Below the pieces are notes generated by a model, which ran no database searches, was not told where the DNA came from, and worked only from the letters and a program-made list of their open reading frames with translations. This document shows, piece by piece, positions 4,313 through 9,483 of a stretch of 27,135 bases of DNA. The DNA comes from a virus. Its lineage: Duplodnaviria > Heunggongvirae > Uroviricota > Caudoviricetes. Position numbers and translations under genes: made by a program. Numbering within the stretch: the stretch's first letter is position 1; each line of letters begins with the position of its first letter. The stretch lies in the IMG/VR virus record IMGVR_UViG_2529292920_000017; one strand, given 5' to 3'.

Positions 4313-4569
4313 GCACCATCAACCACCAGAAGCTACGCGAACTGGCATTTGCCCTGCAACGAATGGCAACGCCTCAAAAATTACTGGCATTTCGCGCAAT
4401 GCTCTCGCCGTCTGCTGTGCTGGCACTGCTGGATGAGCTGGAGCACGCCAGAACCACGGCTCCTGCCATTCGCCTGACACTCCATCATGAAATCGCTGAT
4501 TTCTGCGCGACGTTGGAGGCACCCGGCGAACCGGAAACGCCGGAAGCAATACAGCAAGAGCTGCTGTAA
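4309..4569 (+). CDS. hypothetical early protein
   Basis: ATG at 4309 with AAGGAAG upstream; 86 aa; start overlaps the previous stop. Confidence 0.55.
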   Translation: MSTINHQKLRELAFALQRMATPQKLLAFRAMLSPSAVLALLDELEHARTTAPAIRLTLHHEIADFCATLEAPGEPETPEAIQQELL

Positions 4570-4694
4570 CGCATTGACAAGGTTTTTGATTTTTTCTGAA
4601 CCAGTAAGAAACCAGAACATGCACACACAAAAAAACCGCTTGCCATGCCGCAATCGGTCAGGTTACATTTCCGCTGCACCTCATAAAACGGGTG

Positions 4695-4922
4695 CCGGGA
4701 TTCTCAACCCGATACAGAGCAAAGCGCATAACCGCGCCAGCGGTTTTTTTGTGCGTACTGTATTGCCACGTCTTTTTCGCGTCAGAATTATGGCGGGGCG
4801 TACGGGGCCGACTTCGGTCGGGCCGGATTCTTTGCTCTCCGGTGTTGAGAACCCTGTACGTCTCGCCACCCCGAGATTCTCAACTCTGGATGGTGAGCTA
4901 TTTCTATCACCGAGCAAAGAGG
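4695..4922 (+). promoter_or_regulatory. structured non-coding leader/RNA candidate with repeated bipartite motif
   Basis: Three copies of the pair TTCTCAAC...GAGCAAAG: direct at 4701-4708/4717-4724, inverted at 4830-4837 (CTTTGCTC) and 4844-4851 (GTTGAGAA), direct at 4877-4884/4912-4919. A UUCG-tetraloop hairpin lies at 4805-4824 and a terminator hairpin at 4730-4750. The third GAGCAAAG overlaps the RBS (AAGAGG 4917-4922) of the ORF starting at 4930. Confidence 0.5.
4730..4750 (+). terminator. Rho-independent terminator candidate
   Basis: AACCGC-GCCA-GCGGTT stem-loop followed by seven T residues (4744-4750), in a non-coding stretch after the 4309..4569 gene. Confidence 0.6.
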
Positions 4923-4929
4923 CCACACC

Positions 4930-5160
4930 ATGGCAAACCGCAAACAACAGCGCGCATACGCTGCGCGTCGTCACATCCAGACTGAAATCAACCGTAGACT
5001 TTTCCGCGCATCACGCGTCGCGCAAATCATGCACATCAATATGCTGCATGAGCGCAGCCACGCGCTATCGAACATCTATTCCGCCTCTGTTTTCAGCTAT
5101 CTGGCGGATGATCTGCGCGAGCTGCAACAACTCTTCCAGCAGCAAAACAAACTCCATTAA
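4930..5160 (+). CDS. hypothetical small basic protein
   Basis: ATG at 4930 with AAGAGG 7 nt upstream; 76 aa, arginine-rich N-terminus (MANRKQQRAYAARRHIQTEINRR). Confidence 0.5.
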   Translation: MANRKQQRAYAARRHIQTEINRRLFRASRVAQIMHINMLHERSHALSNIYSASVFSYLADDLRELQQLFQQQNKLH

Positions 5161-5232
5161 TTCCTGTTCCGGGCCTTTCCTGCACCTTGCGGCGGGAGGC
5201 CTTCGCACATCTGTAGTAAAGAGAATTGCAGC

Positions 5233-5622
5233 ATGATTGACGCTCATGACTTCACAAGATGGGTGCGCACACAGGACACCCGTCTGGCTCCCGTTCTTCA
5301 GGGATTATTTGATCTCTACATCCGTGGTCGTGACAACAGAGCACGCACCACAAAACCGGAAAATGCAGACACCCTTTATTTCACAGTAGACGACTGCTAC
5401 CGCGTGGACTTCACACCACACGGGCTGGCGTTGCATTGCCTGATACCACACGGAGAATCACTGCTGGCGTATTACGACTCCCCGGCCTCCGTATTTGCGG
5501 CAATGCTGGCGCATCGCACTGCTGGCGGGTGTGCCTCGCTGAGTGAATACACCGCTGAATTTAACCGCCTTTCTGCCCTCTTCTCGCAGGAGTGGCAGCG
5601 CGTGACGGGATACCAGCCATGA
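5233..5622 (+). CDS. hypothetical protein immediately upstream of the replication initiator (P2 gene B position)
   Basis: ATG at 5233; 129 aa; stop overlaps the gene A start (ATGA at 5619-5622). Positional analogy to P2 B only; no motif recognised. Confidence 0.5.
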   Translation: MIDAHDFTRWVRTQDTRLAPVLQGLFDLYIRGRDNRARTTKPENADTLYFTVDDCYRVDFTPHGLALHCLIPHGESLLAYYDSPASVFAAMLAHRTAGGCASLSEYTAEFNRLSALFSQEWQRVTGYQP

Positions 5623-8447
5623 GTGAGTTTGCATGGAGCTGGAATGAACCACGACCAGCCATTGATCCGGCCAGATTTACGGAGCACAGGCAGGAAACTG
5701 AAACCGACCTACAACGCGCCATCCGTTACTACCTTGAGGCAGACAAAAAGGCTCTGGAAGAACAGGAAGCGAAGGAGGAAGCCTTTTTCGCACAATCCAC
5801 CGTGGGTAAAAAACTCATGGCATCCCTTGAGGAAGCCGGACAGCGTGAAAAGCTGGCACAAAGCATCATCAGCAAGCGTCAGGCAACAGAACAAGACCCG
5901 GTGGCCCGTGCTTTTGCCACACTGAAGGTGCTTCCCGTTTATCTGCGTGAACCTCTGAGCCGCCACCTCTCTTTCCTGCGCAAAAAACAGGAAGCCGATC
6001 GCCAGAAAGGCAAAAAGAGCTGGCAGGCTGAACGCTACGCGCGCGGAACCCTGCGCAAAATATTCGAACGCCTGGACCGCACCGATCACCGCTGGCTGAC
6101 ACCGGGTTATCGCTCCCTTGCCGGACGCGAACGCCTGGACGATTTGCTTTACCTGCCGCAGCTCAACAAACACCAGATACAGACGCTGGCCACCATGACG
6201 GCGGCGATGTTCAGCAGCACCTTCGAAAAACTCTGCGATGGCTTTGGTGCGACTGATGGCGAACTGACCATGGATGTAACGCTGAAGGCGTATCAGATGC
6301 TGGCCCGCATGGCGTTACACCTGCACGCCATGCCTCCACATTATGACGCACTGACAACAGACAAAGACCGGAGGAACGAACCGGACACGGAGCTGCTGCC
6401 GGGCGCAATCCTTCGCCTGACCTGTGCGGAATGGTGGAAACGCAAACTGTGGCTGTTACGTTGCGAGTGGAGAGAAGAACAACTCCGCGCCGCCTGTCTG
6501 GTTTCCAGAAAAACATCACCCTATCTGAGCCAGGACGCGTTAAGCGAGTTTCGCGCACAGCGCGAGAAAACACGCGATTTCCTGAAAAGTTTCATGCTGG
6601 AAAACGAAGACGGGTTCACGATTGATCTCGAGACAGTGTATTACGCGGGAGTAAGTAACCCGGTTCACCGTAAGGCAGAAATGATGGCCACCATGAAGGG
6701 GCTGGAACTTCTGGCCGAAGCCCGTGGCGACAAAGCGGTGTTTCTGACTGTCACCTGCCCGTCAAAATACCACGCCACAACAGAGAACGGTCATCCGAAT
6801 CCCAAATGGAACGGGGCCACCATGCGCGACTCCAGCGATTACCTGGTTAACACGTTTTTTGCGGCGGTCCGCAAGAAACTGAACCGCGACGGCCTGCGCT
6901 GGTATGGCATCCGCACGGTGGAGCCTCACCATGACGGCACCGTGCACTGGCATATGATGGTCTTTGCTCATCCGGAAGAAATCGACACCATTGTGTCCCA
7001 CACCCGCGATATTGCCATTCAGGAAGACCGCCACGAGCTGGGCAATGATATTACTCCGCGCTTTAAGGTGGAGTATGTCGACGGCTCAAAAGGCACGCCA
7101 ACCAGCTACATCGCCACCTACATCGGAAAGAACCTGGACAGCCGCGCCGTGGATGGCATCGACCCGAAAACGGGCAAGCCACGCGTTGACCACGAAACCG
7201 GAAAATCAATGGCCGAGAGCGTGGAACGCGCCATCGGCTGGGCACGCCTTCACCGGGTCCGCCAGTTCCAGTTCTTTGGCATCCCCTCCCGTCAGGTATG
7301 GCGTGAACTCCGCCGCCTTGCCAGCCAGATGGCACGCAACCCGGAAGGCCCGCAACGGCTGAAGGATGATGCAATGGATGCGGTACTCGCTGCCGCTGAT
7401 GCCGGGTGTTTTGCCACCTACATTGAGAAACAGGGCGGCGTACTTGTTCCACGCAAAGACTACCTGATTCGCACCGCCTACGACCTCGCAGATGAGCTGA
7501 ACGATTACGGCGAACAGAGCGTACAGATTTACGGGATTTGGTCACCACTCATCGGGGAATCCTCCCGTGTGTGCACGCACCCGGATAACTGGAAGCTGGT
7601 AAGACGTAAACCGGAAGCGGAAGACAGCACCCGCGAAAATGGTTTTGACCTTCAGGGCGGCCCTGCCGCCCCTTGGACTCGTGGCAATAACTGTCCCCGT
7701 GTACAGGAAACGGACAACAACGGGACAGAACAGCCAGCACCGTGGTCGCAGCTCCCTGACGGCGTTGAAGTGAACGAATGGATGCGCTCACTGAAACGGC
7801 ACGAACGCCGGGCGCTGATGCGTTCGCTTCGTGACAAACAGGCAAAAAACAGCCGTGATGAAATGCAGAGCTGGACACAGAGCCGCAAACAGCAGCGGCC
7901 TTTGCCTGATAACCACGAACTACTCGCTAAAGAATGGCGGGAGTCTGCTGAATCTCTCGGCCTGCATATCGGTGAACAGCAGATGCAGCATCTGTTACGG
8001 GGCGGCAGTCTGTACGTTGACGGCAGCATCATTGCACCGCAGGGATTTGAAATTGTACGCAAACCGGATACCCGACCGGACAGCCGGATCACGCAGCTCT
8101 GGCAGCGCCTGAGCCGTAACCACGGCGTAAGCAGTACGGAGATCCGCCATAACCCGGTCGCCAGCTATCTGGAACAGCTGGGGACATCAGACCCCGAAGC
8201 CGCCGCACGCCTGGCATCCACACTTCAGCAAGACCAGAACACCATGAAAACACCCGTTACCGTGCTTTCTGACATGCTGCGCGCCATCCGCGACGCAGAG
8301 CACGCACAGAGAATCAGTGAAACCACTGAACGCGCCCGCCGCAAAGCAGACCTGCTGCGGGGTGGCCTGACCAGTGGAAACAAAAAACAGACAGAAACGG
8401 GATTCACAAATCCCGTAAATGAGCAAAAAACGCGCCGCGATATATGA
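5619..8447 (+). CDS. A: replication initiation protein, rolling-circle HUH endonuclease (P2 gene A family)
   Basis: ORF track 5592..8447 (GTG); start placed at ATG 5619 (MSEFAWSWNEP...). Contains HUH-type motif VHWHMMVF (around 6945-6968) and paired active-site tyrosines YIATYIGK (around 7105-7128), as in P2 A/phiX174 A-type initiators. About 942 aa, with a long low-complexity R/Q/E-rich C-terminal region. Confidence 0.85.
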   Translation: MSEFAWSWNEPRPAIDPARFTEHRQETETDLQRAIRYYLEADKKALEEQEAKEEAFFAQSTVGKKLMASLEEAGQREKLAQSIISKRQATEQDPVARAFATLKVLPVYLREPLSRHLSFLRKKQEADRQKGKKSWQAERYARGTLRKIFERLDRTDHRWLTPGYRSLAGRERLDDLLYLPQLNKHQIQTLATMTAAMFSSTFEKLCDGFGATDGELTMDVTLKAYQMLARMALHLHAMPPHYDALTTDKDRRNEPDTELLPGAILRLTCAEWWKRKLWLLRCEWREEQLRAACLVSRKTSPYLSQDALSEFRAQREKTRDFLKSFMLENEDGFTIDLETVYYAGVSNPVHRKAEMMATMKGLELLAEARGDKAVFLTVTCPSKYHATTENGHPNPKWNGATMRDSSDYLVNTFFAAVRKKLNRDGLRWYGIRTVEPHHDGTVHWHMMVFAHPEEIDTIVSHTRDIAIQEDRHELGNDITPRFKVEYVDGSKGTPTSYIATYIGKNLDSRAVDGIDPKTGKPRVDHETGKSMAESVERAIGWARLHRVRQFQFFGIPSRQVWRELRRLASQMARNPEGPQRLKDDAMDAVLAAADAGCFATYIEKQGGVLVPRKDYLIRTAYDLADELNDYGEQSVQIYGIWSPLIGESSRVCTHPDNWKLVRRKPEAEDSTRENGFDLQGGPAAPWTRGNNCPRVQETDNNGTEQPAPWSQLPDGVEVNEWMRSLKRHERRALMRSLRDKQAKNSRDEMQSWTQSRKQQRPLPDNHELLAKEWRESAESLGLHIGEQQMQHLLRGGSLYVDGSIIAPQGFEIVRKPDTRPDSRITQLWQRLSRNHGVSSTEIRHNPVASYLEQLGTSDPEAAARLASTLQQDQNTMKTPVTVLSDMLRAIRDAEHAQRISETTERARRKADLLRGGLTSGNKKQTETGFTNPVNEQKTRRDI

Positions 8448-8523: not shown

Positions 8524-9483
8524 ATGAAAATTTGTATCGATGACGGCTCCACCAACATCAAGCTGGCATGGACTGAGAACGGCGAACGCCGCAACGCCAT
8601 CAGCCCGAACAGCTTCAAGTCGGAATGGTCTGCGCCGTTCGGTGGCACGCAGCCCGCGAACTACATGCTTGATGGCGTGCGCTATGGTTTTGATCCGGTC
8701 AGCGATCGCTTTGTCCAGACGACCGACACGCAATACCAGTACAGCGATGTGAATGTCATTGCCATTCATCACGCGCTGGTCAAATCAGGCATCACACCAC
8801 AGGAGGTGGATGTGGTTGTCACCCTGCCACTGAGCGAATATTTCGACACAAACGCACAGCCGGACATGGCCAACATCAACCGCAAAAAAGCAAACGTCAT
8901 GCGCCCGGTGGCGTACCAGAACGGAAAAGCATTCACTATCCGTAACGTACGGGTTATGCCTGAATCCATTCCGGCTGGTTTTAAAGCACTGGCTGACATG
9001 AGTCCGTTTGAATCCCTGCTGATTGTGGATTTAGGCGGAACCACGCTGGATGTGGCAAAGGTTCAGGGACAACTGGCAGGTATCAGCCAGGTGTTTTGCG
9101 ATCCACACGTAGGCGTTTCCCTGATGGCCGATGCCGTACTGTCGGTGATGGCCACTAACGGTATGCGTACCAGTCACCACATCGCCAATACCATTATCGA
9201 ACATCGCCATGATGAAGCCTGGCTGCGCCAGCACATCCACAATGACGCGCATTACGCCAGCCTGATGGCGGTTATTCGTGAAAAGGAAGAAACACTGAAA
9301 CAACGCGTGATCCGCGCGCTGGCGGGTTTTTCGGGTTACGGGCGGGTGATGGTTGTCGGTGGCGGGGCGGAGATTGTGGCACCCGCTATCCGCGAAGCCT
9401 GCGGAGTTAATGCGACTTTCATCGCGGACGGGGTGCCACAGTTTGCTCTGGTTAATGGGCTGTACGCAATGGACAAGGAGTAA
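8524..9483 (+). CDS. parM: actin-like segregation ATPase ParM/StbA
   Basis: ATG at 8524 with AAGGAAAAG upstream; 319 aa. N-terminus MKICIDDGSTNIKLAW and internal LLIVDLGGTTLDVA are the actin-fold phosphate-1 and phosphate-2 motifs. From memory the protein aligns along its length with plasmid R1 ParM (MLVFIDDGSTNIKLQW..., ...VMPESIPAG..., ...GGGAE...). Confidence 0.85.
   Translation: MKICIDDGSTNIKLAWTENGERRNAISPNSFKSEWSAPFGGTQPANYMLDGVRYGFDPVSDRFVQTTDTQYQYSDVNVIAIHHALVKSGITPQEVDVVVTLPLSEYFDTNAQPDMANINRKKANVMRPVAYQNGKAFTIRNVRVMPESIPAGFKALADMSPFESLLIVDLGGTTLDVAKVQGQLAGISQVFCDPHVGVSLMADAVLSVMATNGMRTSHHIANTIIEHRHDEAWLRQHIHNDAHYASLMAVIREKEETLKQRVIRALAGFSGYGRVMVVGGGAEIVAPAIREACGVNATFIADGVPQFALVNGLYAMDKE

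Follow-up and report, generated by a model that had tools for sequence, protein, structure and literature searches.

The stretch of viral DNA analysed here, referred to below as the window (27,135 nucleotides (nt); IMG/VR record IMGVR_UViG_2529292920_000017), represents a P2-type E. coli prophage of the P88/Xuanwuvirus group. A 360-nt gap in its rightward early operon is very likely occupied by a complete IsrK–C4 (seqA–CI) RNA immunity module of the kind present in P1/P7, P4, N15, and Gifsy-1, set here into a P88-like early operon. The module is an ordinary member of a long-known and curated phage RNA system that already bears the name IsrK–C4 (seqA–CI) in the literature. A scan of the window with Rfam at curated cut-offs gave exactly two matches, isrK and C4, both of them full length, and the anatomy of the region, the structures of its RNAs, and the pairings kept by selection are direct observations.

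All features of the module lie on the plus strand. The first of them is a predicted sigma-70-like promoter, found in a promoter scan at 4640–4669 (−35 element TTGCCA at 4640–4645, a 17-nt spacer, and −10 element TTACAT at 4663–4668), the two hexamers of which are invariant or nearly so among the 39 relatives introduced below. The predicted transcription start, G4676, falls on the first position of the Rfam isrK model, and an equivalent promoter-like site is present in eight other lineages, including N15, P4, P1, Stx, mEp460, Yersinia, and Gifsy-1, where it is placed about 7 nt ahead of the leader. The IsrK-type leader, or small RNA (sRNA), that follows (4676–4750; Rfam RF01394 isrK, 62.8 bits with a cut-off of 50, model positions 1–77 of 77) consists of hairpin 1, hairpin 2 with box a1 (TTCTCAAC, 4701–4708) in its loop, a single-stranded linker with box b1 (AGAGCAAAG, 4716–4724), and an intrinsic terminator (4730–4752, AACCGC-GCCA-GCGGTT then T7), which was found by a terminator scan. 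The terminator hairpin at 4730–4745 is part of the isrK model, and its equivalent in N15 is annotated as a rho-independent terminator. Folded alone, the leader adopts the structure of the isrK family (z = −3.1). Its equivalents are seqA in P4 and the c4-a1b1 leader in P1. In Pectobacterium and Serratia, matches to RF01394 isrK and RF03163 c4-a1b1 overlap on one leader (L093 6046–6137, L095 7157–7248, and L096 6936–7027); the two models describe one element, though only c4-a1b1 belongs to the C4 clan.

Downstream of the terminator lies the C4/CI-type antisense RNA (4786–4873), which matches Rfam RF01695 C4 with 78.5 bits (cut-off 45, E = 4.7e-14) over model positions 1–87 of 87. The minimum free energy (MFE) structure of this RNA as a lone strand is that of the family (−47.6 kcal/mol, z = −4.9), with a long outer stem enclosing two hairpins. 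Box b′ (UCUUUGCUCU, 4829–4838) is located in the loop of hairpin 2, where it can pair with b1 or b2, and box a′ (GUUGAGAA, 4844–4851) in the single-stranded junction, where it can pair with a1 or a2. The RNA has a conserved 5′ AAUUAUGG context and a 3′ CCACC tail, which indirectly support its predicted maturation by RNase P, and its mature form, with ends placed from P1 c4 through the Rfam alignment, is predicted to be ~79 nt long, at ~4792–4870. Box a2 (TTCTCAAC, 4877–4884) starts 4 nt past the end of the C4 model (4873 to 4877), as in P1, where the same 4 nt are counted from the annotated end of mature c4 (48419 to 48423). Box b2 (GAGCAAAGA, 4912–4920) and the Shine–Dalgarno sequence AAGAGG (4917–4922) overlap within 4912–4922, at the ribosome-binding site of an open reading frame (ORF) of 76 amino acids (aa). 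Box b2 lies 11 nt ahead of the ATG, just as it does ahead of icd in P1. In the folding calculations, a2 is found in the loop of a small hairpin and b2 is single-stranded. A second promoter-like site (TTGCCA-17-AATTAT, 4763–4791) has its end on AAUUAUGG, the sequence found ahead of C4 in P1, N15, P88, and others. As a dedicated C4 promoter this site is unlikely, its −35 element being unconserved (TCGCCA in many relatives) and the start falling inside the C4 stem. Its −10 element is the AAUUAU conserved beside C4 in all phages compared, and the site more likely serves as a processing context than as a promoter.

A preliminary description of the same region, made from the letters of the DNA, had pointed to a bipartite motif present twice in direct orientation and once inverted, and all of these copies were found where it placed them, both by reading the sequence and with a repeat finder. 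The 27-kb window contains three copies of TTCTCAAC, all within the module, at 4701–4708 (+), 4877–4884 (+), and, inverted, 4844–4851, the chance expectation being ~0.72 matches. GAGCAAAG is located at 4717–4724 (+), 4912–4919 (+), and, inverted, 4830–4837, with one extra, unrelated site at 6962. The TTCTCAAC…GAGCAAAG bipartite spans are thus 4701–4724 and 4877–4919, and the inverted span is 4830–4851. Chance repeats are ruled out by these motif counts together with the covariation described below. The proposal that the inverted element pairs with either the upstream or the downstream copy agrees with four complementary arm pairs returned by the repeat finder (4698–4708 with 4844–4854, 4716–4724 with 4830–4838, 4829–4837 with 4912–4920, and 4838–4851 with 4877–4890), and both pairings are maintained by compensatory changes. 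Also present are the two hairpins that the upstream pairing was said to enclose, the terminator hairpin with its T-run and a cUUCGg hairpin (4807–4820) between the upstream and inverted copies, as well as the overlap of the downstream copy with the ribosome-binding site of the 76-aa ORF: GAGCAAAG at 4912–4919 overlaps AAGAGG, from which the spacing to the ATG at 4930 is 7 nt. The terminator hairpin forms the 3′ end of an IsrK-type sRNA or leader with a predicted promoter of its own.

Further evidence for the module comes from its variation among related prophages. The 76-aa ORF has 195 relatives in viral contigs, the best 80 of which were used; their upstream regions, together with those of P88 and the window, yielded 40 distinct sequences. 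Of these, 39 were aligned and one (L015) was left out on account of a 17-nt insertion. In the 39 relatives the scaffold is almost invariant, and the a and b boxes are hypervariable, with all three copies changing together. For the pairing of the leader with C4 (a1:a′ and b1:b′), 91.9% of the cells are paired, 10 pairs changed on both sides, and 170 cells are compensated, giving a score of 0.587, compared with 0.125 for shuffled alignments and 0.152 for the best slid partner. For the pairing of C4 with the downstream boxes (b′:b2 and a′:a2), the corresponding values are 89.1%, 10 pairs, 161 cells, and a score of 0.472 versus 0.100 and 0.140. None of 500 shuffles reached the observed score for either pairing, in a control that takes no account of relatedness; a phylogenetic artefact is nevertheless implausible, given the result with slid partners and how many independent box types there are. 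Considered individually, the b1:b′ helix is paired in 100% of the cells, with compensatory changes in six of its nine pairs, a1:a′ has four pairs with double changes, and b′:b2 is 97.4% paired, with five compensatory pairs. The internal helices of C4 are kept throughout (27 of 27 pairs, 100% of the cells paired), with compensatory changes in four pairs and in 25 cells (score 0.120, versus 0.085 shuffled and 0.057 slid). Covariation across related prophages, the test named in the preliminary description, thus gave a positive answer, with both box pairings surviving through many double substitutions; leader and C4 each fold alone into the family structure.

A bipartite motif in two direct copies and one inverted copy would also co-vary if the three copies were DNA sites for a protein, iteron- or operator-like, that change together with the specificity of that protein. 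Such an arrangement is scarcely credible here. The gaps between the boxes are unequal (8 nt for a1–b1, 6 nt for b′–a′, and 27 nt for a2–b2), some differences between copies remain G–U pairs in RNA, and the boxes are situated in the loops of conserved, covarying RNA helices. Moreover, no protein partner varies with the boxes, the adjacent ORF being 91–100% identical across the box types.

The preliminary description interpreted the locus as an attenuator, a riboswitch-like leader, or a small regulatory RNA. Its pairing logic holds and the last of the three options is the right one, as evidenced by the full-length isrK and C4 matches; the attenuator or riboswitch reading fails, and a system that had already been described went unrecognised. 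A purely cis-acting switch, in which intramolecular pairings would set termination and access to the ribosome-binding site upon a signal and no RNA would act in trans, could draw on the mutually exclusive pairings, on the terminator standing between motif copies, and on the MFE structure of the RNA 4676–4945, which uses a′b′:a2b2 in cis. It is nonetheless improbable. No riboswitch or leader family matches the window at Rfam cut-offs, two sRNA/antisense families match at full length, one of them forming the centre of the region, and a leader peptide is absent. The variation sits exactly in the pairing boxes, with the rest, the sRNA helices, invariant, whereas a ligand pocket would give the opposite pattern; the hypervariable, co-varying boxes behave like specificity determinants of an RNA–RNA interaction and not like a ligand sensor. 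In addition, the homologues act in trans by experiment (PMC8546580; PMC3632133; PMC4825925).

The region might also be read as protein-coding, with a 249-aa ORF (4487–5236) of the "Ash family" or "transcriptional regulator" type and with merely incidental repeats. In 37 of the 39 relatives no stop interrupts the frame across the module, there is a weak match to Pfam PF10554 Phage_ASH (18.6 bits, below the cut-off of 26), PHROG "transcriptional regulator" families match with E = 1e-15, and some records annotate such a coding sequence (CDS). This ORF, however, overlaps two well-supported genes in other frames, and substitutions are concentrated in three short, mutually complementary boxes. From the conserved AUG onward, only 16–64 aa of the ORF are left in L015, L034/L052, and L053, and in L049 the frame acquires stops across the module, the RNA pairings being kept in all of them. 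The P4 "cI protein" CDS that defines the Ash family is located exactly over the C4/CI RNA, and P4 immunity is RNA-based (PMC3632133). Breaks in the frame of five relatives with intact pairings, together with the position of the P4 archetype on top of the CI RNA, led to rejection of the coding reading as very improbable. Phage_ASH and PHROG "transcriptional regulator/repressor" families match translations of isrK–C4 DNA in several places (window 4487–5236 (+), L082 8168–8584 (−), and L086 2141–3292 (+)), and these protein families appear to have been built on RNA genes. In mEp460, gp41 is annotated as a single 383-aa protein in which the isrK–C4 region is fused to a Rha anti-repressor, and the P4 record still carries an obsolete "cI gene product" CDS over the CI RNA.

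The first gene under the presumed control of the module is the 76-aa ORF (4930–5160), a homologue of epsilon, the helper-derepression (anti-repressor) protein of P4. Its product matches Pfam PF25738 Derepression with 31.5 bits (cut-off 27), a model on which P4 epsilon itself scores 170 bits, aligns with P4 epsilon in BLASTP (33% identity over 51 aa, E = 4e-9), and belongs to phrog_3688 (E = 1e-45). The ORF is annotated as "derepression protein" in P88 and in RefSeq records. P4 epsilon binds the P2 C repressor and thereby derepresses the helper prophage; by its sequence, the 76-aa protein is a member of the same "Derepression" family, with a putative anti-repressor role in the window. The same transcription unit continues with a 129-aa ORF of unassigned function (5233–5622) and with the gene for the gpA replication endonuclease (5592–8447; Pfam PF05840 Phage_GPA, 437 bits; phrog_3237), both being possible indirect targets through polarity. 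A promoter scan of 4792–5700 revealed no promoter-like site between C4 and gpA. The epsilon-like ORF is rich in C and poor in G (C/G = 1.61, compared with 1.04 for the whole window, with a peak of 2.08 over 5110–5187), a composition compatible with a Rho loading region. NCBIfam has no model for the 76-aa, 129-aa, or 249-aa products, and P4 orf151, considered as a homologue of the 129-aa ORF, was dismissed for lack of similarity.

By analogy with the studied homologues, the module would operate as follows. The C4-like RNA of ~79 nt would be cut from read-through transcripts, with RNase P acting at the 5′ end, and would then pair with a2/b2 in trans or in cis, blocking access of the ribosome to the epsilon-like ORF. 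The untranslated, C-rich ORF would become a substrate for Rho-dependent termination, and the 129-aa ORF and gpA would be kept silent when only the internal promoter is active, as in a lysogen; judging from P1 and P4, the downstream genes would stay off because the lack of translation lets Rho terminate. The C-rich, G-poor composition of the ORF and the absence of promoter-like sites from C4 to gpA agree with this scheme without proving it. The short IsrK-type RNA of 75 nt, or a1/b1 within the same transcript, would compete for a′b′, so that repression might be tuned or relieved, as in Gifsy-1. Selection acts equally on the a1/b1 copy, which can either pair intramolecularly or free the target by competition. 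On the folding models, action in cis and in trans may both occur. The hypervariable boxes would in turn define hetero-immunity specificity, as in P1 versus P7.

Several points weigh against this reading of the module or against its details. In the MFE structure of the read-through RNA (4676–4945), a′b′ is paired with a2b2 in cis and the outer stem of C4 is sacrificed, and a cis contribution is possible because of that fold. In the Rfam scan only isrK reached its gathering cut-off on the leader of the window, RF03163 c4-a1b1 remaining below its own. The Pfam score underlying the epsilon-like assignment is modest, close to its cut-off. Since the module is placed in the middle of an operon, the IsrK terminator stands between early-operon transcription and gpA. 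What is said of RNase P processing, of action in trans, of Rho-dependent polarity towards gpA, and of the short IsrK RNA is extrapolated from homologues. Finally, the emphasis differs from one studied system to another, with translational block and polarity in P1 and P4, control at the terminator in N15, and activation by IsrK in Gifsy-1, and the dominant mode in the window is therefore not readable from its sequence.

The last of these modes amounts to an explanation of its own, which we regard as possible but rather doubtful. Under positive control of the Gifsy-1 type, the mRNA would be silent through intramolecular pairing, and the short IsrK RNA, capturing a′/b′ or other strands, would activate it in trans, leading to synthesis of the epsilon-like anti-repressor and to induction; the processed C4 RNA would be secondary. 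Promoter, leader, and terminator are the same in the window as in Gifsy-1, and the full-transcript MFE structure occludes the ribosome-binding site in cis. In P1, P4, and N15, on the other hand, the processed C4, CI, or CA RNA is the genetically defined repressor. The frame through C4 that would be equivalent to orf45 is broken in several relatives, and no upstream coupling ORF is needed because the target ORF's own Shine–Dalgarno sequence lies directly under b2. The experimental basis of positive control comes from the Gifsy-1 study (Hershko-Shalev et al. 2016, PMC4825925), according to which anrP translation increases more than 100-fold when IsrK is supplied in trans, and the G28A/G31A mutations combined with C162U/C159U define a compensatory helix. 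The positions of these mutants map exactly onto a1:a′, and the a1:a′ pairing is thus experimentally supported in a homologue. Binding of Hfq and trans activation of the read-through mRNA are known only for Gifsy-1 (PMC4825925). Positive control is also compatible with the C4 model and is maybe the other half of the same switch.

The IsrK–C4 reading of the window places it among well-described phage systems. IsrK and C4 have been described as homologous in structure to the seqA and CI RNAs of P4 (PMC3632133; PMC4825925), and P1, P7, and N15 possess comparable systems; c4 RNA represses Ant synthesis in P1 (PMC8546580), and both c4 and c4-a1b1 have been catalogued as motifs since 2010 (PMC2864571). 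In our Rfam scan the isrK and C4 pair was also found in P88, N15, P4, Stx phi346, mEp460, Salmonella 118970_sal3, and Yersinia vB_YpM_39, and in P1 C4 is accompanied by c4-a1b1 in place of isrK. One GenBank record of an Stx phage annotates both RNAs. In all nine lineages, two stretches of the leader (positions ~26–33 and ~41–49) and two downstream boxes are complementary to the loop and junction of C4, and the second downstream box abuts or overlaps a GAGG-type Shine–Dalgarno sequence.

The closest match in layout is offered by P1 (NC_005856), the record of which annotates a1, b1, a 77-nt c4 RNA, a2, b2, icd, and ant1, with c4 (48343–48419) contained within the Rfam match (48337–48422). Both P1 and the window have a promoter, a1, b1, a terminator-like hairpin, C4, a2, b2 over the Shine–Dalgarno sequence, and a small first ORF, with nearly equal spacing; the antisense RNAs belong to the same Rfam family, and the regulated product in P1 counteracts the prophage repressor. 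The immI operon of P1/P7 (c4, a1/b1, a2/b2, icd, and ant1/ant2) is reportedly the subject of work by Citron and Schuster (1990, 1992) and by Biere et al. (1992). Unlike in P1, the first ORF of the window is epsilon-like and not Icd, no Ant1/2 follows but replication gene A does, and the leader scores as isrK and not as c4-a1b1. The module of the window lies inside a P2-type early operon, whereas that of P1 is the separate immI operon with a C1 operator.

P4 (NC_001609) shares with the window an isrK-family leader followed by a C4-family RNA in the same order, a seqC/b2 that overlaps the Shine–Dalgarno sequence of the first ORF, and an epsilon-family gene and then a replication gene downstream. 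Its immunity region, seqA–CI RNA (seqB)–seqC, is said to control the left operon (kil/eta, epsilon, and alpha), as worked out by the Dehò/Ghisotti laboratory. In P4, the CI RNA region precedes epsilon, after which come two ORFs and then alpha, for which the window has gpA, a nickase instead of the alpha primase; the order in the window is more compact. P4 also differs in having an additional ~100 nt between the terminator and CI, as well as small nested genes (kil/eta) between seqC and epsilon, and the 129-aa ORF of the window is without a P4 counterpart. While P4 is a satellite, the element in the window is a helper-type P2-like phage.

In N15, the isrK and C4 family matches have the same spacing as in the window, the a′ box is identical (GUUGAGAA), and an annotated terminator separates leader and C4; the b box, the target genes, and the genomic context are different. 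The anti-immunity locus of N15 (CA RNA, an icd-like gene, and antA–C) was reportedly described by Ravin et al. in 1999, and its control is said to proceed mainly via termination at the leader terminator.

The isrK–orf45–anrP region of Gifsy-1 in Salmonella resembles the window in its leader family, in a C4-like processed RNA (STnc1160), and in the position of b2 over the Shine–Dalgarno sequence of an anti-repressor gene. The target, unlike that in the window, is a Rha/Ant-type anti-repressor encoded in a lambdoid phage, beyond its late antiterminator region. In the model as published, the emphasis falls on activation by IsrK and on coupling via orf45, and not on a repressive C4-like RNA. Gifsy-1 (L101 34076–34316, minus strand) also has an a2 box and a b2 box (AUCACCG, over GGAGG of anrP) downstream of this RNA, and a direct block of the anrP ribosome-binding site of the P1 type is anatomically possible because these boxes follow the RNA. 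The consulted sections of the published model, centred on orf45 coupling, contain no discussion of such a block.

Among the relatives of the window, six a′ types and 11 b′ types were found in 14 combinations, and the a and b boxes therefore reassort. This diversity fits specificity determinants of hetero-immunity, by analogy with P1 versus P7. Co-resident prophages could be compared in two usable genomes: in one of them the box types differ, and in the other they are identical, possibly through an assembly artefact. In the relative left out of the alignment (L015, IMGVR_UViG_2582580934_000004, ~106–411), the 17-nt insertion duplicates the loop of C4 hairpin 2, resulting in two different tandem b′ boxes, one of the window type and the other of the CTTGTGTAG type. 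From its sequence, this module looks like a recombination intermediate between specificity alleles.

A further element is found just upstream of the promoter. The segment ACAAAAAAACCGCU (4627–4640) forms an inverted repeat with the 3′ arm and U-run of the terminator (4739–4752), the two being perfect complements over 14 nt (21 nt at 90%), which makes it a candidate terminator-cancelling strand. Only transcripts reading in from the early operon contain it. In folding calculations, the pair probability of the terminator is 0.97 in a transcript from 4676 versus 0.0 in transcripts from 4600 or 4540. Relatives with at least five different upstream contexts share homology from exactly this segment onward, and in L053 an A6 in the segment accompanies a T6 in the terminator, a single case of co-variation in length. 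Conserved in Xuanwuvirus modules, the segment is absent from those of N15, P4, P1, Stx, mEp460, Sal3, Yersinia, Pectobacterium, and Serratia, that is, from all non-Xuanwuvirus modules examined. Hypothetically, and on the strength of these folds, the segment could let read-in transcripts bypass the IsrK terminator, and such a bypass could explain how early-operon transcripts reach gpA. Counting against it, the segment competes for the 3′ arm of the terminator and not for the 5′ arm, which is kinetically unfavourable. There is also room for 4627–4640 being a leftward terminator or a cassette boundary; a minus-strand terminator formed by the hairpin at 4623–4662 with its A-run finds no support in the fold, which is no better than that of shuffled sequence (z = 0.06), but is still conceivable. 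A genome-wide pattern scan gave 10 loci, none of them a P2-type module with a different terminator.

We can tentatively suggest that Xuanwuvirus (P88-type) modules carry two added layers that are absent from the literature searched, a set of specificity alleles and a filter for the promoter of origin. In the first layer, at least 14 reassorting a/b alleles on an invariant scaffold may gate the epsilon-type anti-repressor and, by polarity, gpA; if true, this layer would be an RNA-based second immunity deciding which related prophages derepress one another. In the second, read-in transcripts may bypass the IsrK terminator, with transcripts from the internal promoter stopping there.

About one in five complete E. 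coli genomes (1154 of 5426) carry the element. Its proper label would be isrK and C4 RNA controlling an epsilon-like anti-repressor, but records are blank or carry spurious CDSs. In RefSeq no feature covers the 320-nt region in E. coli 300709 (L089 5183–5504), and the P88 record has a minus-strand hypothetical CDS over the IsrK and C4 genes (L001 5033–5221 (−)). Since this class of mechanism has been known since 1990, the module adds nothing categorically new to biology, and only the diversity of its alleles and the possible bypass of the terminator by read-in transcripts might repay experiments. It does constitute a natural experiment, with many specificity alleles on one scaffold upstream of an anti-repressor and a P2-type replication gene, that is usable for questions of RNA-based hetero-immunity and prophage cross-induction.

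Outside the module, the window is 95–96% identical to phages P88, PhiR44_2, and Shae_phiSM over ~2340–23400. The upstream neighbour of the module is an Ead-like gene ending at 4569. Unlike the remainder, the end of the window carrying the integrase, repressor, and cox genes (1–2340) has no homology to P88, and the epsilon-like gene thus coexists with differing types of immunity repressor. Directly after gpA follows a ParM-type plasmid segregation gene (8524–9483), and the next ORF is a partition protein according to its annotation in P88 and in E. coli strain 300709; together, the two genes hint at a plasmid-like phase of this P2-type prophage.

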